Part shown: positions 14,423 to 41,300 of the stretch, in pieces
Numbering within the stretch: the stretch's first letter is position 1
Layout of the letters: every line of letters starts with the position of its first letter
Source: an uncultured Anaerolinea sp.
GTDB lineage: Bacteria > Chloroflexota > Anaerolineae > Anaerolineales > Anaerolineaceae
Direction of reading: 5' to 3'
Assembly: GCA_964483135.1 (NCBI GenBank)
Contig: CAZAAJ010000002.1
Coordinates: forward strand, 6,511 to 70,510
Length of the DNA stretch: 64,000 nucleotides
Notes under the pieces: model-generated
Databases searched by the model: none
Told to the model about the DNA's origin: nothing
The model's input: the letters and a program-made list of their open reading frames with translations, nothing else
Program-made: the position numbers and the translations under genes

Positions 14423-14429
14423 GGTTGAT

Positions 14430-16502: not shown

Positions 16503-16532
16503 ATTTTTTAAAATTTATCAAGGAGAATTAAA

Positions 16533-17258: not shown

Positions 17259-17273
17259 TTTTACGCTGTCGTT

Positions 17274-19779: not shown

Positions 19780-20318
19780 TGATTTTTATCCATTTCTTCG
19801 AGGATGCTGTAAAGTAGCTCTAAAAGCACGGTTTTAACAGAGCTCTTTTTCTTTGCGATACAGGGAAGAATCTTAATGTTCTTATCCAGGCGTAGCGCCA
19901 GGCGAATATCTTCAATATCCCACGCGTCCGGCAAGTCCTGCTTATTGGCAGCCACCAGGTAGGGCGTCGGCGCGTATGCATGGAATGTTTCCAGGATGCT
20001 GCGGGCTTCTTTAAATGTTTCAGGCCGGGTGCTGTCGATCATCACAATAAACCCGAGCATTCCTTCCGAAAGGATCTCCCACATAAAGTCAAACCGTTTT
20101 TGCCCTGGGGTGCCGAACAGGAAGAGCACCAGGTCATCATCAACCGTGATGCGTCCAAAATCCATGGCAACGGTTGTGCTTTCCTTCACCATTTCCCCTT
20201 TAGAGGAAACCTTTTTCTCCGTCGAAACTACTTCAATCTCGCTAACCGAACGGATAAGTTCGGTTTTCCCCGAGTTGAAAGGTCCTGTAACAACTATTTT
20301 GACGGTCTGAGTTTGCAT
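19776..20318 (-). CDS. Small Ras-like GTPase, CvnD/MglA-related (COG2229-type)
   Basis: 180 aa. P-loop GPFNSGKT, switch region TTVAMDFGRI, G3 written FGTPGQ (Thr in place of Asp, as in MglA/CvnD) and G4 NKQD. Confidence 0.85.
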   Translation of the reverse strand: MQTQTVKIVVTGPFNSGKTELIRSVSEIEVVSTEKKVSSKGEMVKESTTVAMDFGRITVDDDLVLFLFGTPGQKRFDFMWEILSEGMLGFIVMIDSTRPETFKEARSILETFHAYAPTPYLVAANKQDLPDAWDIEDIRLALRLDKNIKILPCIAKKKSSVKTVLLELLYSILEEMDKNH

Positions 20319-20333
20319 AGATCGGGTCCTTCG

Positions 20334-24154: not shown

Positions 24155-24940
24155 TTATGTAAACATGCGTTTACGTTTCGAATTGATCAACGGAGAAACA
24201 ATTTTCCGCAGGTAATATTTGAATACGATTGGCGCAAACCAGCTGCCGCCATCGCGGTAATGCACCCGCAGCATTTCCGGCCAGCAGCGGTCATCGGCAC
24301 TTACTGTTTTTGCGCCGGAATGCAGGCGGAATTTTGCCCACGGAGTACCAGGCAGATACTTCAACTGTGTAACCTTTGCCAGCCGCACCCACAGGTCGTA
24401 ATCCATGGCGAAGAAAAAACTCGGATCCAATGGACCTGTTTTGCGCCAGTGTTCAGCCCGGAAGAAAGCTGCCGGCTGCGGAATGTGAACAAACCCGCGG
24501 CGCAGCCGGGCAAGATCGGTTTGCGCTGCGTTGAACCTGCCGATAACCTTATCATTCTCGTCAATGAAATCCAGATCGCCGTAAACCATGCCAATTTCTG
24601 GATGTTCCTGAAGGTATGCAACTGCAGCTGAAACAGCACCCGGGGTATAGGCGTCGTCAGAATTCACCCACGCGAGGATTTCACCATGCGCCTTTGAAAA
24701 CCCTTTGTTCAAGGCATCGGTTTGGCCTTTATCTCGTTCTGAAATCCAATAGGCAAGTCTGTCAGTATACTTTTCGATCACAGCAACGCTGTTATCCGAT
24801 GAACCGCCATCGATCACAATGTACTCGATACGTGGATAGTCCTGCTCAAGGACTGAGCGCATCGTCTGTTCCAGGAATCGTCCTTGGTTGAAAGACGGGG
24901 TGACGATAGAAACCAGCGGTTTTTTACCAATGGCAGACAT
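24155..24940 (-). CDS. Glycosyltransferase family 2
   Basis: 261 aa. The N-terminal GT-A signature is VSIVTPSFNQGRFLEQTMRSVLEQDYPRIEYIVIDGGSSD ... NSDD. It is a paralogue of 26474..27445. Confidence 0.88.
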   Translation of the reverse strand: MSAIGKKPLVSIVTPSFNQGRFLEQTMRSVLEQDYPRIEYIVIDGGSSDNSVAVIEKYTDRLAYWISERDKGQTDALNKGFSKAHGEILAWVNSDDAYTPGAVSAAVAYLQEHPEIGMVYGDLDFIDENDKVIGRFNAAQTDLARLRRGFVHIPQPAAFFRAEHWRKTGPLDPSFFFAMDYDLWVRLAKVTQLKYLPGTPWAKFRLHSGAKTVSADDRCWPEMLRVHYRDGGSWFAPIVFKYYLRKIVSPLINSKRKRMFT

Positions 24941-26490
24941 TATTTGATTGTTCCTAACGGGTGGCGCAGGTCGAACAGGTAATATCCATCTCCCTGTTCA
25001 TAAGGGTAATTGGCGAAAAGATAGTTATGCAGCTCAGTTTGTGCTTCAAAATCCCCGATGAGGGTCACCAAAAAGTAATCCATCCCATCAGTACTGGATC
25101 TAAAATACTCCACAAATTCCGGGGATGATACCCCACCGAGCTCACGCACCACCATATCTCCGCGAGTTGGCCAGTCCTTTGGCAGGACGAACCCCCAGTA
25201 CTGCAAACGGTAGCCGTAATCATGGGTTAAACCGATCACCTGCTTGTTTAAGCCAATTTTCTCTCCCAACGTCTTCCAGTAAGCGGCTTCATGACGGTAA
25301 CTGGCAAGTTGAAGATTGTTACGAGTCACCAGGGCTGCAAGCACCATTCCTGCGAAAAGGATGAGTACAACAAGAACGCGAAATAGTTTCGAAAGCTCAA
25401 GCGATTCCAGTTTCTGGAATATCACGTCAGCAATAATCCCAAAACCGATGGCAACAATGAAAACCAGCGGCAGGCTGTAATAGTTATGGGTATAAATATG
25501 ATAAGCAAAGGTAAACCCAAAAATTATGTAACCTATCCATAATAAAAGGTAGATAATTCGGAAATCCTTTTGCCTGATGAGAAAAAAAGCCAGAATTGCC
25601 AGGAAAAGCGGGAAATATCCAACAATCGATTTGGCCATGGTGAACCAGTGGTGATACCAGCTGGGATCCATATACAATGCAGGAAAAAAGCGCGAGCCGA
25701 AGATCGAGCCTTCATTACCACCAACGGTAGCACTAATCACGTTGAAAAGGATTGCTGGAACCAGGGCAAGGACCGCCATCAGGTAGACGTGCCAATCCCT
25801 GATCCAATTCTTGAATCCTTTCATTAACACCATGCATGCAAGTGGCAATCCGACAAAAAACACCGAAGGAGCTTTAACAAAAACTGCCAGCCCTGTGAGG
25901 AGCCCCGCCAGGATTGAATTTTTTAAAGTGCTGTCCTTGAACCATTTATATTGAAAATATATAGCCCACAGTATGCACGAAATCATTAATGGGTCAGGTT
26001 GAAAAGACCGGCTGGCATAAACACCAAACGGAACAAACAGGTAGAAAGCCAGCGCTGCCAAGGCACCATTGACAGAGATCAATCTCCTGGTGAGCAGGAA
26101 TAGCGGGATTCCTCCGATCACCCAAAACAGGATGGAGAAGAATCGTCCGGCATTTGGCCATTCCCTGCCCAGCAAAGCATAGGTATATGCAGCAAGGTGT
26201 TCCATGATCGGTGGTTCAATTGCAGACTGGCCTTCACCGGCAGTAATGCCTATTCGCCTGATATCCGGATCCAGGGTATTCATTTGAGGGATATCCATCT
26301 TGTAATAAATACCCCTCGCCATCAGCAGGGAATGAAGTTGCCGTGTTGCAGCAAAATCCAATTGCAAATCGGAAAAATCAAAAAAACGAACAGCGAAACC
26401 ACCCAGCAATAAAATAGTGACCAGGATCCACTGGATGATCTTATTGGGTCTAAGGAAGAGCGCTGTATGGCTGTTATCTGTCTGCATCAT
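24940..26490 (-). CDS. Polytopic GT-C-type glycosyltransferase (GT39/GT83, ArnT/PMT-like)
   Basis: 516 aa, about 12 TM segments followed by a soluble C-terminal domain of about 110 aa. Acidic residues lie in the first extracytoplasmic loop (DFSDLQLD). Overlaps both neighbours. Confidence 0.6.
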   Translation of the reverse strand: MMQTDNSHTALFLRPNKIIQWILVTILLLGGFAVRFFDFSDLQLDFAATRQLHSLLMARGIYYKMDIPQMNTLDPDIRRIGITAGEGQSAIEPPIMEHLAAYTYALLGREWPNAGRFFSILFWVIGGIPLFLLTRRLISVNGALAALAFYLFVPFGVYASRSFQPDPLMISCILWAIYFQYKWFKDSTLKNSILAGLLTGLAVFVKAPSVFFVGLPLACMVLMKGFKNWIRDWHVYLMAVLALVPAILFNVISATVGGNEGSIFGSRFFPALYMDPSWYHHWFTMAKSIVGYFPLFLAILAFFLIRQKDFRIIYLLLWIGYIIFGFTFAYHIYTHNYYSLPLVFIVAIGFGIIADVIFQKLESLELSKLFRVLVVLILFAGMVLAALVTRNNLQLASYRHEAAYWKTLGEKIGLNKQVIGLTHDYGYRLQYWGFVLPKDWPTRGDMVVRELGGVSSPEFVEYFRSSTDGMDYFLVTLIGDFEAQTELHNYLFANYPYEQGDGYYLFDLRHPLGTIK

Positions 26491-27445
26491 TACAGTCCTC
26501 GGATGTGTGTGGGTTTTGTCGTTTTACCCGCCTGCGGATAAACCATGACCTAAAGTTTTCCAACCCCAAGGGAGCAAAGAAAGCGAAAACCATACGGTAC
26601 CATTCTCTGCCCAAACCACGGGGATTGAGGCAAAAGCTCTTCCAATAGGTTTTAAATGACCCGCGGTAATCCTTCGCATCCAAAAGGTAAAAACCATTCA
26701 GGCGGTTTGCCCCGGCGATGATATCTTTACGATGCCGGTAAAATTCTCCAGATAAATTCGGCTGGGCCGGCATCCATTCCACTATGCGCAATGCCTCTTG
26801 TCCAAATGCTGCGGCCTGCTTCAAGTTTTTGCAATCTTCGTGGTAGTGCGCGCAAGCCCAAAGCCGGGGAATGTACTGCACCTCCCCGACCGCTGCCAGG
26901 CGGATCCACAGGTGATGGTCAAGGAGGAAGTGATAGCTGGTATCCAGGAATCCTGTTTTTTCAAGAGCAGTACGCCGCATGAAAACCGCTGGCTGCCCGA
27001 TGATGTGGAAAGACATCAGGTCGGAAAGCTGCCAATTCCTATAGGTCAACGTGTTCAGGACCTTGCCATCCAGGGTGACCACCCGGACATTACCGTAAAC
27101 GAAACTAGCCTGAGGATGCTCCTGCAGGGCTTTTACCGCGGATGCCACTGTACCGGGCAAGAGGTAATCGTCTGAATTCAACCAGGCAATAAACTCGCCT
27201 TTGGAACGCACCAGCCCCTTGTTGATCGCCTCGGCTTGCCCGGAATCCTTTTCCGAAACCCACCAGGTTAACCGGGCAGCATACTTGTTGATGATATCAA
27301 CACTGCCGTCTTTTGACCCGCCATCTACCACCATGTAATCAATGGCAGGGTAATCCTGATCAAGCACAGAGCGTATTGTCTTTTCCAGGAAGGCAGCCTG
27401 GTTAAAAGAGGGGGTGATAATACTGACCAAAGGGGTTGAAGACAT
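26474..27445 (-). CDS. Glycosyltransferase family 2
   Basis: 323 aa, with VSIITPSFNQAAFLEKTIRSVLDQDYPAIDYMVVDGGSKD ... NSDD. Same architecture as 24155..24940, plus a C-terminal extension. Confidence 0.88.
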   Translation of the reverse strand: MSSTPLVSIITPSFNQAAFLEKTIRSVLDQDYPAIDYMVVDGGSKDGSVDIINKYAARLTWWVSEKDSGQAEAINKGLVRSKGEFIAWLNSDDYLLPGTVASAVKALQEHPQASFVYGNVRVVTLDGKVLNTLTYRNWQLSDLMSFHIIGQPAVFMRRTALEKTGFLDTSYHFLLDHHLWIRLAAVGEVQYIPRLWACAHYHEDCKNLKQAAAFGQEALRIVEWMPAQPNLSGEFYRHRKDIIAGANRLNGFYLLDAKDYRGSFKTYWKSFCLNPRGLGREWYRMVFAFFAPLGLENFRSWFIRRRVKRQNPHTSEDCNDADR

Positions 27446-28248
27446 TAAAAGAGGCTTTCGTAATCCACTTTTGGGAAAATTGTAAGCTTGCCGCCGACTG
27501 TGGCATCGAGGATTTCGCGGCCGTCACGTGCGTAAGCTTCGCGCGCCATTGCATAACCGATCTCATTTCCCTTAAGGTCTGCAAGTTGCCAGCGGAAACC
27601 CTTGCCGAAATACCCCGGATGAAAATGATTGGGGTCATCGCCGGTCGACGTAACCGTTGTATTGGGTGTTCCAGTGGTGGTGTAAAAATGATCTACACCA
27701 ATTAGGACCACCTGTCTAAACCCCATATAAAATGCGAGCTGCATGGCGACAAATGTAACCGTAGAACCTTCCCATAACCGGCCAGTCGCATTTCCTGAAA
27801 ACCTCGGAAGGTCATATGATGTGTAAAGATAATGCAAATTTGGCGATGGGGTGATCCATTTCCGTCCCCGCCATGAGACGAACGTTGGGATGGTGAGCTG
27901 GCGTAAGTCCTGTGCGCACTGCTCGATCACCAAGTCATTAACGGTAAGAAGACAGGAGGTCGAAAAACCAAGTTCGGAAAATGCCATGTAAAAGCGGTTC
28001 ATCCCGATAGTGAATTCAGTTCGAAGTTTCTGCAAGTTGGTATTTTTGAGGCTCGGTCCATTGCCGATGATGAAACAACGCTCCCCTTTGTGTGTGTCCT
28101 TGAGTTGGCGTAGTTTTTTGATCGACTCCTGCCTCCAGGGGTGAAATTGCGCCTGCGGCCAGTCCAGGGCAGCTTGCAGTCTATGTTTGCCAGTTCGCAG
28201 AGAATTAACCAGCGGCTCAGGCAGGTTTTCGAGCAATTTCGATGCCAT
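27445..28248 (-). CDS. DUF115/Maf-like, CstII(GT42)-like putative nonulosonic-acid transferase
   Basis: 267 aa. The motifs CFIIGNGPSL, MNRFY, VLIGVDHFY and DDPNHFHPGYF parallel Campylobacter CstII as recalled (IIAGNGPSL, CNQFY, YLSGIDFY, catalytic-His segment). Confidence 0.65.
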   Translation of the reverse strand: MASKLLENLPEPLVNSLRTGKHRLQAALDWPQAQFHPWRQESIKKLRQLKDTHKGERCFIIGNGPSLKNTNLQKLRTEFTIGMNRFYMAFSELGFSTSCLLTVNDLVIEQCAQDLRQLTIPTFVSWRGRKWITPSPNLHYLYTSYDLPRFSGNATGRLWEGSTVTFVAMQLAFYMGFRQVVLIGVDHFYTTTGTPNTTVTSTGDDPNHFHPGYFGKGFRWQLADLKGNEIGYAMAREAYARDGREILDATVGGKLTIFPKVDYESLF

Positions 28249-28250
28249 GC

Positions 28251-29051
28251 TTACTCCGTGCTCAGGCGGGCGGTCGCACCGCCATCAACAACCAGGGCTT
28301 GCCCGGTCATGAAAGAGGATTGGCTGCCATCCGCGAGGAAAAAAATGGCGTTTGCGATCTCTTCCGGGGTGCCGATGCGTCCATTGACGGTCTTGCGGGC
28401 CAGGTTATCCAGGCGCTCACCGATAGAGCCGCCTGACAAATGTCCGCGCGCAAGACCACTTCGCAGCATAGGGGTATCCACAGCGCCCGGCAGAACAGCA
28501 TTTACGCGAATATTATTCGGAGCGAATTCAATCGCCATTGCCCGGGTGAGCGCAAGGATTCCTCCCTTGCTGGCTGCGTAGGCAGCAATATTTGCAGAAG
28601 TCTGTATCGCATGCACGGAAGAAACATTAACGATCGCTCCTCCGCCTGCCATGCACAATAATGGATGTTCAAACCTGGCTCCGATGAATACCGGTCGCAA
28701 GTTGGTGGCAATCACCTGATCCCACTCGGCTACCGTGGTTTCCACCAGGGGTTTTGAAATTTGCAGGGCTGCATTGTTAACAACAGCATTCAGAGAAGAG
28801 GTGAACAATTTGACCTTGTCAAAGATTAACGGGAATTGTTTAGCCTCTGAAATATCCGCCTGGATGAACAATCCATCCATAGGGAAGCCTTCGCCGAAAG
28901 GCTGTCGGTCAACACCAATCACCGACCACCCGCGGCTGGCAAACATCTTCACAGTAGCCCTTCCAATACCACCGGCACTGCCTGTTACCAGGACGATACG
29001 CTTGTACCCCTTAACCGCCTCTTCACCTTGTAATAATTTTTTGTTGGTCAT
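28251..29051 (-). CDS. SDR family oxidoreductase
   Basis: Start at the ATG at 29051 (MTNKK). TGSAGGIGRA Rossmann motif, NNAA, and catalytic S...YAASK. The track ORF start at 29114 lies inside the upstream gene. Confidence 0.88.
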   Translation of the reverse strand: MTNKKLLQGEEAVKGYKRIVLVTGSAGGIGRATVKMFASRGWSVIGVDRQPFGEGFPMDGLFIQADISEAKQFPLIFDKVKLFTSSLNAVVNNAALQISKPLVETTVAEWDQVIATNLRPVFIGARFEHPLLCMAGGGAIVNVSSVHAIQTSANIAAYAASKGGILALTRAMAIEFAPNNIRVNAVLPGAVDTPMLRSGLARGHLSGGSIGERLDNLARKTVNGRIGTPEEIANAIFFLADGSQSSFMTGQALVVDGGATARLSTE

Positions 29052-30000
29052 ATAAATCCTCGTGGTCAATTTCCAATCCAATGAGCAAATTACGGATCGT
29101 ATTCCAATGCACATTTTCCCAGGCAGCCGGGCTTGAGTTGGAGTTATGCGGCGCCAGCATCACATTTTTCATTTTAAGCAAAGGTGACCTTTGTGGTAAT
29201 GGTTCATGTTCAAAAACATCGAGTGCTGCGCCGGCGATCACATTATTTGCTAAAGCAGTTATCAGCGCTGTTTCATCAACGATCGGTCCCCGCGCAGTAT
29301 TCACCAGGATTGCGGTATGTTTCATCTTTCCCAGTGTTTCTTCGTTGATAAGGTGCAATGAACCCGGGTTGAGATCGCAATTAACGCTAACGAAATCAGC
29401 TTCCTTCAGCAGAGTGGCAAGATCAACGGAGGTCACATTGTTCTCCAGCAAAAAATCACGCGGGATGGGCAGGATATCATTTCCCAACAGGCGCATGCCA
29501 AAACCACGTGCACGCCGCAGAACCGCCTTGCCTATGTTGCCAACTCCGATCACTCCAAGCGTACACTCCGAGAGGGAGCGGCCAGGGATCTTTTGCCAGA
29601 CACCAGATTTTACCGCAGAATCCATCCACGGCTGCTGGCGTGCGAATGCCAGGATATAGCCCATCACGCTGTCGGCTACCGGCAGGGTGAACGCGTTAAG
29701 AGTGTTGAGCAATTTGACCGAATAGGTTGCGCAGGCTTCCTTGTCGATAGAATCGATGCCCGTACCCCATTTGGCGATCACCTTCAAGCGCGGAATACAA
29801 GCCTCAATCACCTTGCGGGTATATCGGTCATCCCCGCAGATTGTCCCATCAAACTTCCCGGCGTAGGTTAACAGGGCATCCTCTTCCAGGCGTTCATTCA
29901 CATGGGGGAGGATAAGGTTGATCCCGTAGTGCTTGAAAACAGGAGCGAATCTTTCCATGAAAGGGAGCATATAAGGGGCAGTCAATAACACGTCATACAT
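29023..30000 (-). CDS. D-isomer-specific 2-hydroxyacid dehydrogenase (glycerate/phosphoglycerate dehydrogenase-like)
   Basis: NAD motif GVIGVGNIGKAV, catalytic region NTARG...D and a His in APHNS. The ATG at 30000 has AAGAGG 5 nt upstream; the track start at 30030 is also possible. Confidence 0.88.
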   Translation of the reverse strand: MYDVLLTAPYMLPFMERFAPVFKHYGINLILPHVNERLEEDALLTYAGKFDGTICGDDRYTRKVIEACIPRLKVIAKWGTGIDSIDKEACATYSVKLLNTLNAFTLPVADSVMGYILAFARQQPWMDSAVKSGVWQKIPGRSLSECTLGVIGVGNIGKAVLRRARGFGMRLLGNDILPIPRDFLLENNVTSVDLATLLKEADFVSVNCDLNPGSLHLINEETLGKMKHTAILVNTARGPIVDETALITALANNVIAGAALDVFEHEPLPQRSPLLKMKNVMLAPHNSNSSPAAWENVHWNTIRNLLIGLEIDHEDLYDQQKIITR

Positions 30001-30064
30001 TTTTACCTCTTGCACCGAACTCTTCTCCAATCATCATATCATTCACCCTTCAATTCACAAACAC

Positions 30065-32161
30065 CTATTCCTTGATGACATATTTATACAAAATAAACTG
30101 CTCCGGACTATCGATCCGTTCAACTTCCTGCAGCCTGTTCACAAAGATCGCGTTATATGGGTCTGAGATTGTTAGAGTATATTCCTTTCCAAAGACATAA
30201 TCGAGCGGCAGGGCATCCAGCCATTTTTGCCCGTTTCCTGTTTTTATTGCCTGAAAATAATCAGCACTGTTGATCAATCCATCGAGGTTGACCACCGTGC
30301 GGTTTTGGATGAAATAGGCGGTACTTCCCCCTCCTGTCATGCCAATAAGCGACGCCTCTTCAGTAAGTGCCTCAAGTTGGGTAACTTCCGACAGGTAATC
30401 ATCCTGGTTTTCCAAAGACACCTCTTGTGGCGCCAGGTTGACGATGTAACGGATATGGAGAGTCGAAATATAGACGAACAATCCCATAAAAACAATCAGT
30501 GAGATTATTGACCGAACGCGTCCCTTTTTCATCCAAATGGTGAATCCTTCAAGCAGCACCGACCCCAACAACACCATCGAGAGCATCTGGGCAATCCAGT
30601 ACCAGGCCCGGGTATGTTGGTACCCAACTGTTGTATAGTACATGAACTGCAGAGTGGCTCCCAGCATCAGAGCCGGGATAAAAAGCGAAAACGATTTCCT
30701 GGCAAGATTGCCGTGCTTGTAATTCATTAGCATCAACACCAGGATGCTGACCACGGTAAACGAAATGCCAAATATTGACGCTGATGCGCGGGGGTTTGCC
30801 ATCTTAAACCAGCGGGTGAGTGTGTCGGCAAAAGTAAAAAACTGGTTGGTCACGAGCGACCACGCCCCGTAGTTGCCATCCGGGTACAACCCCAGCACTG
30901 TCAACAGGGTAACCTTATGTCCATAAATGGTATTTGGAAGGGTACTCCACCAGGTCTTGATCTGCCCGCTGACGGGAGTGAAGGTACCAAAAAACACCTT
31001 GTTGAGGATCATGTACGTACTGATCAACACTGCAATCGGAAGTCCAATCAAAAAACCTTCGGCAATAATGCGGCGCCAATTCAGTGTCATCCATTCAGTT
31101 AAAGCCGCCTGTGGGGATTTTTGGTTTTCATCAATTTTTTTACGCGCAACCAGATGATGGATGAAGACCAACCCGAAACTTAACAGGGCATCGATGAGGA
31201 GTATCGATTTTGACACGGTTGGAACCACTTTCAAATGGTTTAAAAGCAACAGGAACCCAAATTCGACCACCAGGGCAGCAACGGAAGCAACCACCAAACG
31301 CAGAAGCAAACCGGTAATTCTTTTACCCGAAGCAGAACTGTAAAGGCTAAGGAAGTAATACGCGATGGGTTTAACCAGCAAGCCAGCCGCGACCATGGGA
31401 TAGATAGACCTGGATTCGATCTCATACGCCGGCAAACCGAGCCGGATGAGCCAGACGATAAACCCGGAAAAAGCGATCAACACCAGGTCAATAAAAACCA
31501 CCAGCTTGATCTGCTTCACACGAAGGAGTACAAATACAATGACCACAAGCACCACGAACAGGTTGTCCAGGCGCGAAAGTATGGTCATTGCTCCCAGCAA
31601 GCCAAGGAAAACAAACTGCGTCCATTTCAGGTGTTTAAGACCTGCGGATGCCAGGATCGTTGCGGTCTTGAATAGAAACAAAACCATAAAGAAAGCGCTT
31701 ATTGCCGCTTCCATGCCATGCACGATCGTATTTGAATACACTGCCGGCAGCAGGATCCAGGTTAATGCACCGATGAAGGCTGGCCAGGTTTTCAGCGCTA
31801 TCTTAAACAATTTGAAAAGAAAAACCCCAGTGAGCCCATTGAAAAGTGCACTTACCAGCACAAGCACTCGCAAGGGGAGGATCAGGTTAAACCGTGAAAG
31901 CCAAAAAACGCCGAGGCAGACCCCCATCCACAGCGGATGAAACCCATTGGTCAGGTGGATCTGGTCAAAGGTGAACCCATGTCCGCTGAGGACATTTTGC
32001 GCAACCTTGTAGTAATAGAAGGCATCATCAATGTTGTACCAGCGCATCAGGCTGTTGGCTGGTGCAAGGGAAACATAAACACCCCCGGCAAGCCCGGCCA
32101 GAAGCAGGAACCACTCAATCAATCCAATGGAATGCTTTTTGGTCCAGCTAAACATTTCCAT
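30065..32161 (-). CDS. Large polytopic membrane protein with C-terminal soluble domain (GT-C-like glycosyltransferase or polymerase, family unknown)
   Basis: 698 aa, at least 14 hydrophobic segments, then a hydrophilic C-terminus of about 130 aa. Overlaps the upstream cytidylyltransferase stop by 14 nt. Confidence 0.6.
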   Translation of the reverse strand: MEMFSWTKKHSIGLIEWFLLLAGLAGGVYVSLAPANSLMRWYNIDDAFYYYKVAQNVLSGHGFTFDQIHLTNGFHPLWMGVCLGVFWLSRFNLILPLRVLVLVSALFNGLTGVFLFKLFKIALKTWPAFIGALTWILLPAVYSNTIVHGMEAAISAFFMVLFLFKTATILASAGLKHLKWTQFVFLGLLGAMTILSRLDNLFVVLVVIVFVLLRVKQIKLVVFIDLVLIAFSGFIVWLIRLGLPAYEIESRSIYPMVAAGLLVKPIAYYFLSLYSSASGKRITGLLLRLVVASVAALVVEFGFLLLLNHLKVVPTVSKSILLIDALLSFGLVFIHHLVARKKIDENQKSPQAALTEWMTLNWRRIIAEGFLIGLPIAVLISTYMILNKVFFGTFTPVSGQIKTWWSTLPNTIYGHKVTLLTVLGLYPDGNYGAWSLVTNQFFTFADTLTRWFKMANPRASASIFGISFTVVSILVLMLMNYKHGNLARKSFSLFIPALMLGATLQFMYYTTVGYQHTRAWYWIAQMLSMVLLGSVLLEGFTIWMKKGRVRSIISLIVFMGLFVYISTLHIRYIVNLAPQEVSLENQDDYLSEVTQLEALTEEASLIGMTGGGSTAYFIQNRTVVNLDGLINSADYFQAIKTGNGQKWLDALPLDYVFGKEYTLTISDPYNAIFVNRLQEVERIDSPEQFILYKYVIKE

Positions 32162-32825
32162 ACTCCGGTTTCGCTTTGAGCATCAGCTCGACCATTTTGA
32201 AATCGACCTCTTCATCAATATCCCACGATTCTTCGGGGGCAGTCTCAAACAGGATAGGCGACGTGCCGATGCGCGTTCCATTCTTTTTCAGACTTTCTGC
32301 TGAAAAAAGGTAAATACAGGAATTTTCCTCATACACGGGCAGCAGGTCCTGGGTTTGCAGCAGAACCCTCGGGTCGTGGTTGATGGCTTTCCCCCGCGCA
32401 TCATAAAGGCGCGTTTGCAGCCTGGTAACCGAGAATAATGAATCTTTTGCCGGCATGGCGCTTAACAGGGAGTGAATAGCCCTGGAGATGGTTTTCGAGG
32501 TCAGCAGCGGATTGGTGGAATGCGTCTGCAGATATAGATCGCCCGGAACTTGTGAAATGTCATAAAGGAGGATCTGATTCATTGGGATGTTATCGGCCTT
32601 CAACGCGTCAGGACGCGGGATTACGATAACACCCGGGAACGAACGATGAAGGCCATCGATTATCTCTTCGCTGTCGGTATCCACTGCGATGCGGGTGACT
32701 TCGGGGCAATGCTGCAAAGTAAGCAGGATGTGCTGGTAAAGGGGTTTCCCATCCAGCAGGCGGTAATTCTTGCCGGGTACCCGTTGTGAATGGTGGCGCA
32801 TGGGGATGAGTGCAGTAATTTGCAT
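32148..32825 (-). CDS. Acylneuraminate cytidylyltransferase family protein (CMP-ulosonic acid synthetase paralogue 1)
   Basis: 225 aa. The N-terminal ALIPMRHHSQRVPGKNYRLLDGKPL matches the CTP_transf_3 P-loop-like motif (IPAR..S.R.P.KN). AAGAGG RBS upstream. Confidence 0.8.
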   Translation of the reverse strand: MQITALIPMRHHSQRVPGKNYRLLDGKPLYQHILLTLQHCPEVTRIAVDTDSEEIIDGLHRSFPGVIVIPRPDALKADNIPMNQILLYDISQVPGDLYLQTHSTNPLLTSKTISRAIHSLLSAMPAKDSLFSVTRLQTRLYDARGKAINHDPRVLLQTQDLLPVYEENSCIYLFSAESLKKNGTRIGTSPILFETAPEESWDIDEEVDFKMVELMLKAKPEYGNV

Positions 32826-32846: not shown

Positions 32847-33131
32847 CTAACCGCCTGTGATGACCGACATCAGGTGGATACACTCGCCTTCATGTGGAGA
32901 TTCGTCCATCAGCATGACTGGATTTTCCAGGTTGCCATCAATTACAAACATGACAGAACTGAGGAATTCATCGCCGCCAGGAGTTATCAGGATATTCACC
33001 ATGGCAGGATAACGCAAAGCTAATTCCTTAACGATTTGACGATAACGCGTTCCCTCCGGAAGCGACAGGGTGAGTTCATCTATTTCAGCAAGCTCCTTCG
33101 CAATCCCTGAGAACTCGACCTTAACCTTCAC
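32847..33131 (-). CDS. MoaD/ThiS-family ubiquitin-like (beta-grasp) protein with C-terminal Gly-Gly
   Basis: 94 aa. GTG start with GGAGG 7 nt upstream. MKVKVEFSGIAKEL...EGECIHLMSVITGG then stop. The overall pattern is collinear with MoaD (N-terminal beta-strand, C-terminal ..PPVTGG-like tail). Confidence 0.75.
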   Translation of the reverse strand: MKVKVEFSGIAKELAEIDELTLSLPEGTRYRQIVKELALRYPAMVNILITPGGDEFLSSVMFVIDGNLENPVMLMDESPHEGECIHLMSVITGG

Positions 33132-33172
33132 CTGTTAACCTCCACCGATTGATACCTGTGGATTACTGAGAT

Positions 33173-34129
33173 TCAATCTTTTATTTTACTATACTGGATC
33201 GGCTCAACCGGACGGTTGCTCTTGCTGTGACCGCTTTCAGCAGTCCGTGGATAATAGAATGTCTGCCGCAGCCCCCAGGTGAGCTGCCCGGGTTGGCGGT
33301 ATCCGCAGTAAGTTCCATAGAATTGTGCCCACCGGAAGCGAATAACCGGGAAGAAGTTGCGCCAAAAAACACCCTGTCTCCTGGCAGATTTCAAATCATC
33401 CACCGAGTTGTGATAAAAGAGACGCACCAGGTCTGCCCTGCCAAAGCGTTCCTGGGGGAAGATCCGCTTAAAAGCCATCCCTTCACGAAGGTAACGGTTA
33501 AAAATTCTTTTTGGCTTTTCGTGGTGCACATGGATAATCTCAGCTTCGGCGACATAGGAGATCCCAAAGCCTGTGCTGTGGAGCCATTTTGCCCATTCTA
33601 GGTCTTCCAACCCCGGCAGGGTTTCATCATAGGGGTGCAGCTCCCACAATTTTCGCCGAATGGCGGCATTGGCATTATTGCAGAAAGGATATTCCTGTAA
33701 CGGTTCAGAATCATCAGGGTACCAGTGTTTGAAAATCTGCTGTTCGGAAAAATGAGAATGGCTGGTACCGCGCTGTTTGCCATATGTTAACCCTATCTTT
33801 TCATCAGCAAACGGTGCCAATAACTGGTCAAGCCAATCCGGGTAGACCGGGTAAACATGCGCACTGGCCATCACTACCAGGTTAGCACCTGCTGCAGCAA
33901 TTCCCTTATTCAATGAACGTCCAAAAGTAAACTTTTCAGGAGAGATGTGGACGACGTCTACGGCGAATTCACTGGCTGCCGCGACTGTACCATCAGTCGA
34001 ACCGGAATCCACCAGGATCACCTGTACATTTTTGAGCGACTGTTCAAAGATTCCCAGCAGCAGCCGGCGAATGTGAGATTCCTCGTTGTAAGCGCGGATG
34101 ATTATCGAACAGTCAGGTTTAGCTGTCAT
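33173..34129 (-). CDS. Glycosyltransferase family 2
   Basis: 318 aa, with CSIIIRAYNEESHIRRLLLGIFEQSLKNVQVILVDSGSTDGT and a later ED acidic motif (GLEDLEW). GT-A fold. Confidence 0.85.
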   Translation of the reverse strand: MTAKPDCSIIIRAYNEESHIRRLLLGIFEQSLKNVQVILVDSGSTDGTVAAASEFAVDVVHISPEKFTFGRSLNKGIAAAGANLVVMASAHVYPVYPDWLDQLLAPFADEKIGLTYGKQRGTSHSHFSEQQIFKHWYPDDSEPLQEYPFCNNANAAIRRKLWELHPYDETLPGLEDLEWAKWLHSTGFGISYVAEAEIIHVHHEKPKRIFNRYLREGMAFKRIFPQERFGRADLVRLFYHNSVDDLKSARRQGVFWRNFFPVIRFRWAQFYGTYCGYRQPGQLTWGLRQTFYYPRTAESGHSKSNRPVEPIQYSKIKD

Positions 34130-35742
34130 GGCTTAAGTTCAAATGGCGTTTGATGGCTGATACCATCCAAAATCACCTGCATAGTTTCAGAGTTGTCAGA
34201 AGACAGGTCTGGGCACGTTACGTTCTTTTTTAGTGTTACATACCCCTTCCAGTACAGATCTGTATCCAGGAATTGGTCGAAAGGAAGCGAGAACATGAAC
34301 AATTGCTTATATAAGAATCTTCTTGCATTCCGGGTGAATTCAGGAGGTACCGGCTGTGCATCCGCAAGCAAAAGGGAATCCAACTTCTTTTTGTAATCAG
34401 CCTGGGAGAACGGGTGAATCGTGATGGGGATCTGGGTGTAGCGTGCCTTTGCCGCAGTAAGCACATTTTTTCCCAACAGGATCGCTTCCAGACCAATGGT
34501 GGAGTTATAGACCATCACAAAATGGGAGCGCTGGATAAGCTCATACGAACTGACCATTTCATCCGTATCGATGAAGACCACGTTTGTAAGTAAGTCGATT
34601 GAAGATTGCTCCACCCAATTAGCCACGCTTTCGCGGCTTTCTTTACCTTTTCGACCCTCATCCGGGTGCGCCCGCAAGATAAAGAGAATCTCTGGATGTT
34701 CCCTGGCTGCCTGGTGAACAACGTTCAGCCAGTCAAACATGGTCGGGAAAATAGTGTTGGCGTGTACCTGGCTGGTATCGAAAATGACATTGGTAAAGAC
34801 CGGAATGATTTTCTTATAACTCGTCATTTTTTGCATGAGGGTTTCATCAAGCTGTTCGATCTGCGGCCAGAACTTGATGCCAGCCATAGTGAAATTGCCT
34901 TTGAACCGTTTGCCCATGTAATCATCCAGCCGGTTATTCATCGCATCATTAAGTTCGAAATCAGCAGGAATCTCCAGCGGATAAGCGGTGGCTTCACCAT
35001 CAGTGAAGAAAGCTGTTAATGGTTGAATCCCCACCTCATGGGTGATCACACGTACTTTTTTATCCAGGCAAGCCTGGCGTGCGGCAGCTTCGGGGTAGAA
35101 CATGCCATTGAAGACCACCACCGCCTGCGGATTCAACCTGTCGATCATTGTAGAAAACTGTTGATAGACATTCCATGCAGAGAGAATGAAGGCACGCATG
35201 AAGGTCAGGGTTGGCTCATCCTCAACCAGGTTATGGCGTCGCAGAACCCATCGCAGCGAGTTCACCGCCCAAAATCCGAGTGGTAAATCGTCTTTTGTAA
35301 AGCCAATTAATCCATCAAGAGTCAGGGGCTGTAACCCGGTTTTTAATTCAGGGTATTTCCGCTGTACCAGCCAGGTGACTGGAGCGCCCGTAAATACCTG
35401 GCGGCTTTGCCGGATACACACGTCACATGGAGGGGATTGATAGACATCATCGCGATTACTGCCCAGGATGCAGCGCTCCATGCCGGCATTGCAAATGAAA
35501 TAATTCACCGGAACACCATTTGCCCGCAGGCCAAGGCTAGCCAGCAGCGAATAGGCTGCGTTCTGGCTCATACTCTGCAGCCGGGTGGAAGCGTTAAAGA
35601 AGATAACCGGTCGAAAGTCCTCCGCTGGTGTTGGCAGAGAACTGGTTTGACGGACCAACCCATTCCAGCGCTGGTTGCTGGAATAATGCGACCAACGCTG
35701 ACCAATGGCGTTCTTGATTTTTACCGGTGAGTAACCTGTCAA
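34126..35742 (-). CDS. GT-B-like protein, capsule-biosynthesis (KpsC/KpsS, Capsule_synth)-like; N-terminal Cys cluster
   Basis: 538 aa. It shares the motifs LRAHPDEG and VYNSTIGLEAILLGKNVL with 53348..54997 and 43517..44944. It has an extra CNAGMERC...CDVC four-Cys cluster. Family assignment is from memory. Confidence 0.45.
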   Translation of the reverse strand: MTGYSPVKIKNAIGQRWSHYSSNQRWNGLVRQTSSLPTPAEDFRPVIFFNASTRLQSMSQNAAYSLLASLGLRANGVPVNYFICNAGMERCILGSNRDDVYQSPPCDVCIRQSRQVFTGAPVTWLVQRKYPELKTGLQPLTLDGLIGFTKDDLPLGFWAVNSLRWVLRRHNLVEDEPTLTFMRAFILSAWNVYQQFSTMIDRLNPQAVVVFNGMFYPEAAARQACLDKKVRVITHEVGIQPLTAFFTDGEATAYPLEIPADFELNDAMNNRLDDYMGKRFKGNFTMAGIKFWPQIEQLDETLMQKMTSYKKIIPVFTNVIFDTSQVHANTIFPTMFDWLNVVHQAAREHPEILFILRAHPDEGRKGKESRESVANWVEQSSIDLLTNVVFIDTDEMVSSYELIQRSHFVMVYNSTIGLEAILLGKNVLTAAKARYTQIPITIHPFSQADYKKKLDSLLLADAQPVPPEFTRNARRFLYKQLFMFSLPFDQFLDTDLYWKGYVTLKKNVTCPDLSSDNSETMQVILDGISHQTPFELKP

Positions 35743-35746: not shown

Positions 35747-36616
35747 CTAGATCCTGCGCAGCTTCTTCAATGACGGAAGCTCGCTGTCGTATACCTTTTT
35801 TATGCCGTCACCGACAGATTGTTCGGTAACGCGGATGTATTTAACCAGTTTTTCGAAACCACCCGGTTCAACCGAGGCTGCCTGGTCAGAACCCCACATG
35901 GCACGGTCGAGGGTAATGTGCCGTTCCACCATGCAGGCGCCCAACCCTACCGCCACTGCAGAGGTGACCAGCCCAACCTCATGCCCGGAATATCCAATGG
36001 GGCAGGAAAACGTTTTACGAAGTGTGTCGATCATTCGCAAATTCAATTCATGAGGGTCGCAAGGATAGGTGCTGGTGGCATGCGTGAGAACCAGGTTCTC
36101 CTGACCGACCAGGCTTACTGAAGTTTTAATCTGTTCCAAAGTGGACATGCCGGTTGAAAGGATCAAAGGACGACCGGTACTTCGCAAATGCGTCAGTAAC
36201 TTGTGATCGGTTAGAGATGCGGATGGGATCTTGTAGCAAATGGGGTCATACTGCTCCATGAAGTTGACGGCTTCCTCATCCCATACGGAAACAAACCAGT
36301 CAATGCCAACCTGCTTGCAAAAACGGGCAATCTCGTCATATTCTTTTTTACCAAATTCCGTCTTCTCACGGTATGCCATGTAGGTGATGTATCCCCATGG
36401 GGTTTCACGCATCTGGTTGCGCTGCTCAGGGGGGACGCATAATTCCGGAGTGCGTTTTTGGAACTTGACCGCATCCACCCCGGCGTGTTTGGCAGCCTGG
36501 ATCAGTTGTTTTGCGATTTCAATATCTCCATTATGGTTGATCCCGGCTTCAGCGATGATATAAGCAGGATGTCCATCCCCTACCAAGCGATTACCGATCG
36601 TTACTTCACGTGTCAT
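35747..36616 (-). CDS. NeuB-family nonulosonic acid (9-phosphate?) synthase, lacking the C-terminal SAF/antifreeze-like domain
   Basis: 289 aa. IIAEAGINHNGD, DAVKFQKR, STGMS and GYSGHE are NeuB TIM-barrel motifs. The ORF stops about 55-65 aa short of the other two NeuB paralogues in this window. Confidence 0.85.
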   Translation of the reverse strand: MTREVTIGNRLVGDGHPAYIIAEAGINHNGDIEIAKQLIQAAKHAGVDAVKFQKRTPELCVPPEQRNQMRETPWGYITYMAYREKTEFGKKEYDEIARFCKQVGIDWFVSVWDEEAVNFMEQYDPICYKIPSASLTDHKLLTHLRSTGRPLILSTGMSTLEQIKTSVSLVGQENLVLTHATSTYPCDPHELNLRMIDTLRKTFSCPIGYSGHEVGLVTSAVAVGLGACMVERHITLDRAMWGSDQAASVEPGGFEKLVKYIRVTEQSVGDGIKKVYDSELPSLKKLRRI

Positions 36617-36662: not shown

Positions 36663-37898
36663 CTATTTTAACCGAGTTAAGAGGATATCACAAAGCTCCC
36701 TCACTGCGCCGCGACCACCCTGGTTCTCAAGTACCCAATCTGCCTTGCGTTGTACTTCGGGGAGGGCATCTGCGGGAGCAAATGCGAAGGCCGCCACCGG
36801 GAAACATGGCAGGTCATTGGTATCGTTACCGATGTAAATCACTTCGCCGGGGTCGATCTTCATTTCAGTCAGGTATTCTTTCAGGGCCGCTGCTTTATCA
36901 TCGATCCCCTGCAATACGGGGACATTTATCTTCCTGCACCTGGCTTCGACAACCGGGTTACGCTCCTTGGAGATGACCAGCGCGGAAATTTTTTTCTGCT
37001 CTTTCAAAATTGCCAATCCAAGGCTGTCGCTGCGGTTGGCAGCGATTGCCTCGTCGCCATTTTGACTTACCCAAACCCGATTATCAGTTAAGACACCGTC
37101 GAAATCCAATACCAGCAGTTTCACCTTACGCGGCAGCGGACGGCGCTGGTTAGCCGGGTCAACAAATGTCAGCCCACCATCGCGGATCAGGGTTTCCGCA
37201 GCACGCCAATCGGATGGTTTGTCCAGGTCCACGGTATATTTGGGGTCAATAATAAGCGGCAGGATCACCCTTCCACTCATGGATTGTTTTTCGAGGATCA
37301 CATGCGGCCGGATGGCGTCAATATGCCCGGTCTGCCAGTAGACTTCCGGCAGGATTTGGCGGGGAGCATTGAATGGTTCAGATATACCGGGAACCCCCAC
37401 GATCGGGATCATGCGTCCTTCGGGTTCGATCTTCCACATCTTATAAGGGTTTTGCCCTGCCAACACCACACCCCTCACTGAGTCGGCGGTCGGGTTTGCC
37501 AAAAGCAGCCCCACTGCCTCATCCACGCAGGTTAATGGGCGGATGGGAGAAGTCGGTCGCAGCTGGACCACTACTTCAGGTCGGTAACCCTCGTGTTCAA
37601 ACAACCACTCAAGTGCATGCTTGTAGACGGGCAGGTCAGTGGTGTTATCCCGCGCAAACTCGTCAGGGCGCAAAAAAGGCGTCTCAGCCCCCCACTCGCG
37701 AGCCACCGCGGCAATTTCCTCATCGTCGGTTGAGACGATGGTGCGTGTAACAAGGTTGGCCCGAAGCCCCGCCAAGATACTGTAAGCAATCAGGGGATAT
37801 CCGCCAAAGTCCCTGATGTTCTTGCGGGGGATTCCCTTGGACCCGCCGCGTGCCGGAATTACCGCCAGTATTTCGGGTTTTTTTACCATGCTGTCCAT
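36663..37898 (-). CDS. Fusion protein: CMP-ulosonic acid synthetase (CTP_transf_3) + KdsC-type HAD phosphatase
   Basis: 411 aa. The N-terminal half has AVIPARGGSKGIPRKN. The C-terminal half has the HAD motif I LDFDGVLTD, then SKER and GNDTNDL (KdsC/YrbI family). An alternative ATG is at 37889. Confidence 0.85.
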   Translation of the reverse strand: MDSMVKKPEILAVIPARGGSKGIPRKNIRDFGGYPLIAYSILAGLRANLVTRTIVSTDDEEIAAVAREWGAETPFLRPDEFARDNTTDLPVYKHALEWLFEHEGYRPEVVVQLRPTSPIRPLTCVDEAVGLLLANPTADSVRGVVLAGQNPYKMWKIEPEGRMIPIVGVPGISEPFNAPRQILPEVYWQTGHIDAIRPHVILEKQSMSGRVILPLIIDPKYTVDLDKPSDWRAAETLIRDGGLTFVDPANQRRPLPRKVKLLVLDFDGVLTDNRVWVSQNGDEAIAANRSDSLGLAILKEQKKISALVISKERNPVVEARCRKINVPVLQGIDDKAAALKEYLTEMKIDPGEVIYIGNDTNDLPCFPVAAFAFAPADALPEVQRKADWVLENQGGRGAVRELCDILLTRLK

Positions 37899-38704
37899 CC
37901 TCCATCCACCACCACGTTGGAACCTGTCATATAGGAAGAAGCGTCAGACGCCAGGAACAAAAGAGCACCGTTCATTTCATCTTTCCTTGCCATACGTCCA
38001 AGGATTGCCCGTGAAGAGTAGTTTTTTACAAATTCTTCCGGATTATTATTGAAAACGCCACCCGGTGTGAGCGCGTTCACGCGAATTTTCGTGCCCATGT
38101 AATAGGCAGCCAGGTATCGCGTGAGCCCCATAATGCCGGATTTGGTCACAGAGTAAAAAACAGGTTTGAATACCTTTTTCTTGCCGGCAAAATCATAGAT
38201 GCGCTGGTCAGGGCCGACCAGCCCATAAGTGGAGCAAATATTGATGATCGAACCGCTGCCCTGTTTTACCATCACCCTGCTGGCAGCCTGGGATGCCAAA
38301 AAAGCACCAGTAAGGTTGACGTTCAAACCATCCTGCCAGAACTGCAGGGGGTAATCCTCAAATGCATTGTTGCTGGTTTGCGGGTGATCAGGGTCGAACT
38401 TCGGGTCAAGCGCAGCGCTGTTCACGAGCACATCCAGGCGGCCTGTCATGGCAATTACTTTATCCATTGCGGCGCTGACAGATGCCGGGCTGGTCACATC
38501 CAGTTCAAGCCCATATACTGTGCCGGGCAATCCCTGCAAATCGCGTGTGCAACTTTCGACCAGGGTGGGATTTACATCAGCTAAAAAAACAGTCGAGCCG
38601 GCTTCTGCCAGAGTTTTGACGAATTCTTTACCCAGCAGTCCTCCTCCCCCGGTCACAACCGAAGTCTTCCCTTGTAAAGAAAATTTATCGAAGATGGTAG
38701 CCAT
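37883..38704 (-). CDS. SDR family oxidoreductase
   Basis: 273 aa, with TGGGGLLGKEF, NSAA and the catalytic YSVTK. Confidence 0.88.
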   Translation of the reverse strand: MATIFDKFSLQGKTSVVTGGGGLLGKEFVKTLAEAGSTVFLADVNPTLVESCTRDLQGLPGTVYGLELDVTSPASVSAAMDKVIAMTGRLDVLVNSAALDPKFDPDHPQTSNNAFEDYPLQFWQDGLNVNLTGAFLASQAASRVMVKQGSGSIINICSTYGLVGPDQRIYDFAGKKKVFKPVFYSVTKSGIMGLTRYLAAYYMGTKIRVNALTPGGVFNNNPEEFVKNYSSRAILGRMARKDEMNGALLFLASDASSYMTGSNVVVDGGWTAW

Positions 38705-38712: not shown

Positions 38713-39699
38713 TTAATCAAGTTTAACCAGTTTGCCAAAATGTGAGGATTGATGCACTGCCAGGGTTAATTTTAATGCTGCGATGCCATCATGGATATCA
38801 CATGCGGGGATTTCTTTCCCATTGGCAACATGAATGAAATGCTGCATTTCTGCCAGGAAAAGATGATTGCGCTCGAAACCAGCCGGTGGAAGGATTTCCT
38901 CCGGTTCGGGTCTGCCTGCCCGGAAAACCTTTGCTGAGGCAGTGGCGTTATCAAAAAAGATCGTCCCATTTTCGCCAATGATCTCGAGCGTGTGTTTTCC
39001 AGGCTGCTGCACATAATCCAGGTGAACCGTGCCAGCCAGGCTGCTCTTGAATTGCAGCCCAATCTCGGCGGTGTCTTCAACGTCCAATCCGAGACCAGCC
39101 GATGAAGTGTAAGCCCACACCGAATCGACATTACCGAACATCCAGCGTAAATAATCCAGCGGATGACTTAAAGTATTCACCACTCCCCCGCCCAATTCAG
39201 GGCGGGCGCTGTAACTCTGGCGGTAATCCTCCCAGGGGTGCCAGCCGGGCAAGTATTCACCCCAGTGCGCCCTGAAGGAAACCGGCTTGCCAATCGCATA
39301 CGCCTGTACCATTTCGCGCACCTTGCTTAACACCGGGTGAAATCGGAATTGGAAACCAACAAGCATGGGGCTGCTGTGCTCTTCGAGAGCGCGCTGCAAC
39401 TCCTCTACCCGGTTCATGTCGTGAGAGATCGGTTTTTCCATCAGGATGGCACAACCAGCCTTCGCCGCCGGGATGGCAACATCTAAATGCAGCGCGGTCG
39501 GGTTGGAAACAACGACTGCATCCGGTTGATGCGCCAGAGCAGCGTAAATCTCGGTTTCATCCGGAATTCCATTGATGTCTGCTTCAGGCAAGGTGGAGTG
39601 GTGAGAGCGCAGCAAAACGAAATCGGTCTCCCCCAATGCGCGCAGATTATTTAAGTGGCGGCGGCCAATCGAACCAAAACCACAAATGAGCGTTTTCAT
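38713..39699 (-). CDS. Gfo/Idh/MocA family oxidoreductase
   Basis: 328 aa. N-terminal Rossmann MKTLICGFGSIGRRH and the EKP motif (LMEKPISH). First gene of the minus-strand operon 39699->24155. Confidence 0.88.
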   Translation of the reverse strand: MKTLICGFGSIGRRHLNNLRALGETDFVLLRSHHSTLPEADINGIPDETEIYAALAHQPDAVVVSNPTALHLDVAIPAAKAGCAILMEKPISHDMNRVEELQRALEEHSSPMLVGFQFRFHPVLSKVREMVQAYAIGKPVSFRAHWGEYLPGWHPWEDYRQSYSARPELGGGVVNTLSHPLDYLRWMFGNVDSVWAYTSSAGLGLDVEDTAEIGLQFKSSLAGTVHLDYVQQPGKHTLEIIGENGTIFFDNATASAKVFRAGRPEPEEILPPAGFERNHLFLAEMQHFIHVANGKEIPACDIHDGIAALKLTLAVHQSSHFGKLVKLD

Positions 39700-41290: not shown

Positions 41291-41300
41291 GGAGATTAAC

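Follow-up and report, generated by a model that had tools for sequence, protein, structure and literature searches.

Introduction

MoaD/ThiS-type carriers serve cofactor, tRNA and cysteine pathways and a few antibiotic or siderophore pathways. Here we analyse a gene for a small ubiquitin-like protein (Ubl) of this kind that lies within an operon for a nonulosonic/ulosonic-acid glycan, in a 64,000-nucleotide stretch (hereafter the window) of contig CAZAAJ010000002.1 from an uncultured Anaerolinea sp. The family to which this organism belongs, the Anaerolineaceae, comprises filamentous bacteria that abound in anaerobic digesters and sludge. The novelty lies in the setting: a familiar carrier fold occurs in a deeply conserved glycan-operon context that had not been described, with a putative function in glycan synthesis.

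The closest described systems are of several kinds. In chuangxinmycin biosynthesis, the MoaD-family carrier CxnE is encoded within the cluster, relies on the activating enzyme (E1) MoeZ in trans, and supplies sulfur to C2 of a 2-hydroxy/keto acid that a reductase of the cluster produces (PMC5925218), while the 2-thiosugar synthesis by BexX draws on shared sulfur carriers (PMC11323500). MoaD genes usually neighbour moaE, moaA or moaC, and a further theme links MoaD to aldehyde:ferredoxin oxidoreductase (AOR; Iyer, Burroughs and Aravind, 2006; PMC1779556); TK1065 of T. kodakarensis is another AOR-linked MoaD (PMC11323500).

The Anaerolinea locus has likenesses to these systems, but its gene setting, judged in cis only, differs from those of functional MoaD, AOR-linked MoaD, BexX-type thiosugar systems and SAMP-type conjugation systems. 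Like MoaD and MOCS2A, Ubl is a beta-grasp protein of about 90 residues with a free C-terminal Gly-Gly. Unlike a functional MoaD, it lies in a glycan operon and has no moaE, moaA, moaC or moeB nearby (in cis only), and its tail reads LMSVITGG, against FPPVSGG in the archaeal MoaD-like protein 1vjk. The best structural and sequence kin of Ubl are of the SAMP1 and P. furiosus PF1061 type, dual carriers and modifiers whose E1 is often encoded in trans; Ubl differs from them in being bacterial (Chloroflexota) and in having neither a JAMM protease nor an E1 in cis. Distant members of the same clade, as defined by hidden Markov models (P0252 type), share the AOR adjacency of the AOR-linked MoaDs, whereas the Ubl operon has no AOR or other tungsten or molybdenum (W/Mo) enzyme and the neighbours of Ubl encode GT2 and CTP_transf_3 proteins. 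CxnE and QbsE (thioquinolobactin) are alike in being MoaD-family carriers inside a biosynthetic cluster, with an E1 (MoeZ) from primary metabolism and sulfur delivered at a carbonyl or 2-hydroxy-acid carbon; both have a C-terminal extension and a cluster-encoded JAMM protease, unlike Ubl, which has neither. BexX clusters contain a ThiG homologue, whereas the Ubl operon has no ThiG-like enzyme, and its expected product is a surface glycan and not a secondary metabolite. In full-text searches and the surveys of the Aravind group, no polysaccharide, nonulosonic acid (NulO) or protein-glycosylation locus was described as encoding a MoaD/ThiS protein, in agreement with an earlier reading of this DNA (the original prediction), to which no such role was known for surface-glycan loci.

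Ubl is a MoaD/SAMP-type protein with a conserved free Gly-Gly end

The Ubl gene occupies positions 32847-33131 of the minus strand and encodes 94 residues, from a GTG start (33131-33129) to a C-terminus reading ...ECIHLMSVITGG that is followed immediately by TAA; the translated tail is ...HLMSVITGG-stop. The 94-aa open reading frame (ORF), its GGAGG motif 7 nt from the GTG and its ITGG end had all been noted in the original prediction and are borne out here, with the strand corrected to minus. The Pfam ThiS model (PF02597) matches Ubl end to end with an E value of 2.9e-4 and 21.8 bits, 0.7 bit below the gathering cut-off of 22.5, and precomputed matches to PF02597 are present on many Ubl orthologues; NCBIfam models gave no match to Ubl. 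A phmmer search of PDB sequences aligned Ubl with the MoaD-like protein 1vjk of P. furiosus from residue 1 to the terminal Gly-Gly (E 5e-5). The collinearity with MoaD that had been proposed is thus visible in both a full-length Pfam match and an end-to-end pairwise alignment.

An AlphaFold2 model of Ubl (22 orthologues; mean pLDDT 84.5, pTM 0.75) has beta-grasp topology, and Foldseek comparison with the PDB ranked Haloferax SAMP1 first (3po0, E 3.6e-6, TM 0.80), followed by 1vjk, human MOCS2A (5mpo), M. acetivorans SAMP1, mycobacterial MoaD, Urm1 and E. coli MoaD; 6jbz and 1fm0 are among the matches of the MoaD/MOCS2A kind. These top matches (SAMP1, 1vjk, MOCS2A, MoaD and Urm1) have a Foldseek probability of 1.00 and TM scores of 0.7-0.8, and CysO from the BexX complex is found lower in the ranking. 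Taken together, the Pfam, phmmer, AlphaFold2 and Foldseek matches place Ubl among the MoaD/SAMP-type proteins of the MoaD/ThiS superfamily as regards fold and terminus, with a borderline Pfam score. The structure prediction and comparison with MoaD and SAMP therefore uphold the Gly-Gly, MoaD/ThiS-like identity first assigned from sequence, with SAMP1, 1vjk and MOCS2A as the best matches.

A first homology search retrieved 28 protein clusters at 57-100% identity, and a profile of divergent members enlarges the Ubl family to at least 120 clusters. Throughout 30 orthologues from genome loci (43-100% identity) the tail LMSVITGG plus stop is invariant, as is an FLSS motif, and a GG end is found in 91 of 93 further clusters, the exceptions being a protein ending in ...TGE, from a 616-bp contig, and another ending in ...TGGC. 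All 46 unique orthologous genes (46/46) have a Shine-Dalgarno (SD)-like motif and an in-frame stop right after the GG. Comparison of orthologues shows the last 90 codons to be free of indels, and the median dN/dS by the Nei-Gojobori method is 0.17 over 99 pairs, restricted to dS values of 0.05-1.5. We conclude that the ORF is a real gene, far beyond chance given the 46 orthologues with SD and GG-stop, the dN/dS and the lack of indels, and that Ubl is under purifying selection with a conserved free Gly-Gly end. The body of the protein is the fastest-evolving of the operon (mean Kimura distance 0.57 vs 0.19-0.54 for the other genes); a strongly constrained free Gly-Gly tail on a fast-evolving body is what would be expected if C-terminal chemistry is the function.

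Ubl is a fixed component of an Anaerolineaceae glycan operon

In the window, Ubl belongs to a run of 15 genes on the minus strand that spans 39699 down to 24155, with adjacent genes overlapping or standing no more than 46 nt apart (listed in operon order in Table 1). It is separated by 41 nt from the upstream gene for a 318-aa GT2 glycosyltransferase (GT2_318) and by 21 nt from the downstream gene for a 225-aa cytidylyltransferase (CTP225). Both the tightly packed 15-gene operon and the two gaps had been described before, and the coordinates confirm them. Terminator, promoter and Rfam scans returned nothing above chance, and from the tight collinear packing, the SD of its own and the lack of a terminator above chance, Ubl is predicted to be co-transcribed with the operon.

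Related loci were gathered by exact-protein look-ups, a scan of 185,579 GTDB species genomes and a metagenome scan, and were mapped by tblastn synteny. The GTDB scan, a two-peptide-pattern search that can miss divergent family members, found the family in 24 of the 185,579 species, all with the glycan locus and represented by Anaerolineaceae/Chloroflexota metagenome-assembled genomes; the metagenome scan yielded 30 Ubl loci. The total is about 60 loci from at least 24 Anaerolineaceae species. The order GT2_318 - Ubl - CTP225 recurs in all loci long enough to include the neighbours, and the long loci contain the whole operon. Absence of the gene from orthologous glycan loci had been named beforehand as a test of its link to the glycan, and Ubl is never missing from the about 60 loci. 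By comparison, the gene for the 698-aa membrane protein (Mem698) is lost in L031-33, L068 and L078, and that for PMT_2 in L005 and L009, with Ubl kept in each case. Five loci, not including the window, have a gene for a 353-aa radical SAM/SPASM protein inserted between the CMP-synthetase-phosphatase and NeuB genes, and a 175-aa GNAT gene (L021 9373-9900) is inserted between GT2 and Ubl in one species only. The membership of Ubl in the glycan operon, part of the original prediction, is stable across the about 60 loci, and we conclude that Ubl is a fixed, retained component of the Anaerolineaceae nonulosonic/ulosonic-acid glycan operon.

The flanks of the operon are also syntenic, with genes for a Kbl/BioF-like aminotransferase (AT394) and a helicase. 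Since the loci come from a single family, the flanks are syntenic and the GC content of the operon equals that of the backbone (0.499 vs 0.501), the glycan locus is native and vertically inherited. One locus (L028, CAYVRM010000061.1) is labelled as an uncultured Syntrophorhabdus sp. and contains a full Anaerolineaceae-type operon with 52-79% identity to the window, probably through a binning error.

Relatives of Ubl outside the glycan locus

When 1.84 billion representative proteins were searched with a profile, 123 matched at E ≤1e-3. There are two closest outgroups to the glycan-type proteins. One is a P0030-like Anaerolineaceae clade (the sister clade), whose members have about 100 aa, end in ...LSVMTGG and are about 45% identical to the glycan type. 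The other is a small P0029/P0198 clade whose members end in ...SLVTGG plus two extra residues, which implies C-terminal processing; the tails read ...SLVTGGRL and ...SLVTGGST, and other clade members also have short extensions after the GG. Neighbour-joining trees recovered the P0030-like clade as monophyletic in 55 of 60 bootstraps and the glycan-type clade in 3 of 60, the sequences being too short to resolve the latter.

The P0030-like genes have a conserved context of their own in the Anaerolineaceae, made up of Mo-hydroxylase (molybdenum hydroxylase) genes, COXG, a xanthine/uracil permease, an NmrA-like protein, two small proteins, Ubl, a GNAT, an Asp/Glu racemase and AddAB. The sister-clade Ubl is thus found downstream of the Mo-hydroxylase/COXG/xanthine-permease cluster; before it come a 168-aa protein that no Pfam model matches and a 119-aa membrane protein, and after it the GNAT and the racemase. 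The GNAT of this context was compared with the one inserted before Ubl in L021, and the two are unrelated. The neighbourhood of P0198 resembles positions 1870-18182 of the window, which have no Ubl at the equivalent spot.

One sample contains both the glycan-type cluster P0013 and the sister-type clusters P0169 and P0277, on different contigs (GC 0.48 vs 0.44). The sister-type contigs measure 2.21, 1.71, 0.64, 0.49, 0.44, 0.43, 0.38 and 0.22 Mb and the glycan-type contigs 1.01, 0.85, 0.79, 0.63 and 0.52 Mb and smaller. Neither sample lists nor comparison of tetranucleotides and GC revealed the two types in the same genome, a result that is not conclusive; the data lean toward their not co-occurring, and the two loci could simply lie far apart.

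Possible roles of Ubl

The place of Ubl in the glycan operon hints at, rather than proves, sulfur or tagging chemistry in glycan synthesis. We tentatively favour the reading, to which we give somewhat less than an even chance, that Ubl is an operon-resident carrier with its E1 in trans and donates sulfur within the glycan pathway. Its fold, its free and conserved Gly-Gly, the purifying selection and the invariant operon position are directly in evidence here, and from them we infer activation in trans, sulfur transfer and a target in the glycan pathway. A MoeB/ThiF/MoeZ-type E1 from another part of the genome would adenylate the free Gly-Gly and then convert it to a thiocarboxylate, which would pass its sulfur to a carbonyl-bearing intermediate of the operon. 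Makers of carbonyls are supplied by the operon in the form of two short-chain dehydrogenases/reductases (SDRs), a GFO oxidoreductase and a D-2-hydroxyacid dehydrogenase, along with 2-keto-acid NulOs; candidate acceptors are a keto-sugar (SDR/GFO), a 2-keto/2-hydroxy acid (D-2-hydroxyacid dehydrogenase) or the 2-keto acid NulO itself. Such a scheme would have parallels in sulfur carriers that are encoded in biosynthetic clusters and rely on the E1 of primary metabolism. If Ubl does serve the glycan pathway, there would be sulfur or ubiquitin-like chemistry on sialic-acid-like sugars in the Anaerolineaceae, and an unrecognised class of C-S bond-forming enzyme would be indicated. A narrower version, which we regard as unlikely, has Ubl as a dedicated thiocarboxylate donor that puts sulfur on the nonulosonic/ulosonic acid or a keto precursor to give a surface thio-sugar, with an acceptor enzyme of unrecognised type among the GT2, SDR or 2-hydroxyacid-dehydrogenase proteins; if true, no earlier step of envelope-glycan biosynthesis would be known to depend on a sulfur-carrier protein.

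Several observations weigh against sulfur donation within the glycan pathway. To our knowledge, no sulfur-containing NulO glycan has been described. A Pfam scan of all 59 non-overlapping window ORFs of at least 90 aa found no E1, MoaE, ThiG/ThiH, JAMM protease, rhodanese or cysteine desulfurase, in line with what the original prediction had said of the E1, MoaE, ThiG, ThiH, JAMM and desulfurase genes. No E1, JAMM, MoaE or ThiG is present among the unmatched ORFs of the about 60 loci either, the loci likewise have no rhodanese or desulfurase, and the co-occurrence of an E1-like adenylyltransferase with Ubl in orthologous glycan loci, which had been suggested as a check, was found at no locus. 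The known thiocarboxylate-using types (MoaE, ThiG/BexX, CysM and TtuA/Ncs6) are lacking from the window and from every locus, no window ORF has the ThiG-family match expected of a ThiG/BexX-like C-S bond enzyme, and Pfam searches for a hidden partner at E ≤10 returned nothing for the C-terminal 119 aa of GT2, the N-terminal 283 aa of Caps538, the C-terminal 129 aa of Mem698 or a 306-aa ORF. As to synteny, the loci are confined to one family and their flanks are conserved, and single-family vertical inheritance makes synteny weaker evidence for functional linkage than synteny across phyla, so that the synteny of Ubl may largely reflect vertical inheritance. Among the relatives, a P0030-like Ubl lies 4 kb from a Mo-hydroxylase cluster, P0198 stands alone upstream of a carboxyltransferase/oxaloacetate-decarboxylase cluster near AllF/AllG and a Mo-hydroxylase (xanthine dehydrogenase, XDH), and distant 94-aa members (P0252, ...AGG) lie 3 nt upstream of AOR. 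Although several contigs span 0.5-2.2 Mb, none is shared by glycan-type and sister-type clusters among the matches listed (best 120 of each search), which fits their being alternative copies of one general-purpose gene. From the original proposal of a glycan role, then, the superfamily identity, the stable operon membership and the absence of partners in cis hold up, while the proposed action on a sugar stays conjectural and the operon contains no recognisable thiocarboxylate-using enzyme.

Because of the Mo- and W-enzyme neighbourhoods of the relatives, the ancestry of the clade, as judged from gene context, points to sulfur transfer for a pterin cofactor. The main rival reading, which we rank not far below the favoured one, is that Ubl is the general carrier of the lineage or its MoaD for a pterin cofactor (molybdenum cofactor, Moco; molybdopterin cytosine dinucleotide, MCD; or tungsten cofactor, Wco), merely resident in the operon, with MoaE and MoeB encoded elsewhere and no part in the glycan. 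MoaD, MOCS2A and SAMP1 are its best structural and sequence relatives, the wider clade contains AOR-adjacent MoaDs as well as paralogues a few kb from Mo-hydroxylase genes, and the SVITGG tail resembles the SVMTGG of the sister clade, suggesting shared partners. A Mo-hydroxylase is encoded in the window (1870-5662), where Ubl is the sole MoaD-like ORF, since about 250 family proteins used as tblastn queries matched nothing else there; however, MoaD genes are usually found with moaE, moaA or moaC (Iyer 2006), and no moa gene, moaE included, lies in the 64-kb window or within 10 kb on either side of Ubl in any of the about 60 loci. The separation of glycan- and sister-type genes among the listed contigs and the lack of an acceptor enzyme in the operon would also suit a general carrier, but Ubl sits mid-operon between gaps of 21-41 nt, undisplaced while neighbours came and went, and is the fastest-evolving protein there. 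Moreover, the GTDB pattern scan, which can miss divergent members, recovered the family from only 24 species, all with a glycan locus, whereas the use of Moco is far wider. Were Ubl a housekeeping MoaD after all, it would stand as a caution that deep single-family synteny can pass for functional linkage.

Two further roles would not require sulfur donation. That Ubl acts as a SAMP/TtuB/Urm1-type modifier, attached to lysines on enzymes of the pathway or on a glycan acceptor protein after activation by an E1 and so regulating or scaffolding assembly, strikes us as improbable: conjugation is rare in bacteria, no E1, E2-like protein or JAMM deconjugase is encoded at any locus, and the defence and ubiquitin-like system models of PADLOC had no match, even though SAMP1 is the top structural match, Urm1 is among the matches, the mature GG end requires no processing and MoaD-type Ubls of archaea act as carriers and modifiers alike (PMC11323500). 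We give still less credence to Ubl as a non-covalent beta-grasp adaptor or subunit of GT2 or the cytidylyltransferase, with its tail inserted in the partner and no E1 chemistry. The same two genes are always adjacent to it, and in a mirror-tree analysis its residual rate co-variation is strongest with GT2_318 (partial r 0.47), followed by CTP225 (0.31). This correlation is confounded by linkage, other adjacent pairs being equally high, and was rejected as a means of choosing a partner for Ubl; besides, an invariant free Gly-Gly is the hallmark of adenylation chemistry, and no fusion of Ubl to a neighbour occurs among the about 120 protein clusters.

Gene content of the operon and other features of the window

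Table 1. Features of the Ubl locus in operon order, followed by insertions and contexts in related loci (L numbers, with positions in those loci).
Feature	Coordinates	Strand	Remarks
GFO/IDH/MocA oxidoreductase	38713..39699	minus	First operon gene
SDR (PtmA-like)	37883..38704	minus	
CMP-ulosonate synthetase fused to KdsC/Kdn-9-P-type HAD phosphatase	36663..37898	minus	
NeuB-family synthase without SAF domain	35747..36616	minus	
Capsule_synth/BFO_1060-like GT-B transferase	34126..35742	minus	
GT2 glycosyltransferase, 318 aa (GT2_318)	33173..34129	minus	Always directly upstream of Ubl
Shine-Dalgarno GGAGG	33139..33143	minus	7-nt spacer to GTG of Ubl
MoaD/SAMP-like beta-grasp Ubl ('glycan-type Ubl'), 94 aa	32847..33131	minus	GTG start, ITGG-stop; Pfam ThiS, phmmer match to 1vjk, AlphaFold2/Foldseek, dN/dS
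Ubl Gly-Gly codons and stop	32847..32855	minus	Diglycine is the true protein end
CMP-NulO-synthetase-like cytidylyltransferase, 225 aa (CTP225)	32148..32825	minus	Always directly downstream of Ubl; CTP_transf_3 E 4e-25
Polytopic membrane protein, 698 aa (Mem698)	30065..32161	minus	Weak PMT_2 in orthologues
D-2-hydroxyacid dehydrogenase	29023..30030	minus	
SDR	28251..29114	minus	True start probably near 29051
MptE-like/DUF115 (Maf-type) protein	27445..28248	minus	
GT2 (323 aa), PMT_2 GT-C (516 aa), GT2 (261 aa)	24155..27445	minus	Operon end
Radical SAM/SPASM insertion	L009 5435-6496; L018, L019 5429-6490; L021 4843-5904; L025 5464-6525		
Sister-clade (LSVMTGG) Ubl context	L036 9095-10315; L039 7173-8399; L047; L048; L080		

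CTP225 aligns over its full length with the solved structures of NeuA, the CMP-Neu5Ac synthetase (9t4z, 6ifd and 1eyr). Its identity as a MocA-like molybdopterin cytidylyltransferase was considered and ruled out, given these full-length NeuA matches and no match to NTP_transf_3. Mem698, the second-fastest-diverging protein of the operon and the one absent from the five loci named above, has no Pfam or NCBIfam match.

The operon is part of an unusually rich glycan island (24155-57121) with three NeuB paralogues, five CTP_transf_3 cytidylyltransferases, two Capsule_synth (KpsS/C-like) proteins, two GT-C-like membrane proteins, a Maf/MptE-like protein and a Wzm/Wzt ABC exporter. Within it, a divergent three-gene cassette on the plus strand (40151-43426) encodes a neuC-like UDP-GlcNAc 2-epimerase, a CBS-domain CMP-NulO synthetase and a NeuB with SAF domain. 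The cassette has a GC content of 0.386 against 0.49-0.50 for the backbone, and related loci that do not contain it have a Glyphos_transf-like gene directly before the GFO gene; the cassette was probably acquired horizontally, as a module of the sialic/legionaminic type. The island also encodes an uncharacterised adenylating enzyme of 499 aa (51813-53312, minus strand) with a weak Asn_synthase PP-loop match at residues 234-295. As a candidate thiolation enzyme this protein was set aside, with a weak AsnB-like match only, no PDB match and a distance of 19 kb from Ubl.

Elsewhere in the window, positions 1870-18182 resemble a purine/oxamate-catabolism region, with an XDH-type Mo-hydroxylase, an amidohydrolase, a Bmp-type ABC importer, a cyclase, AllH and a carboxyltransferase accompanied by oxaloacetate-decarboxylase (OAD) gamma, biotin-carrier and beta subunits. 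At 19776-21149 on the minus strand, a gene for a Ras/Arf/MglA-like small GTPase (180 aa) adjoins one for a DUF4388 protein, a possible polarity or motility switch pair in a filamentous member of the Chloroflexota.

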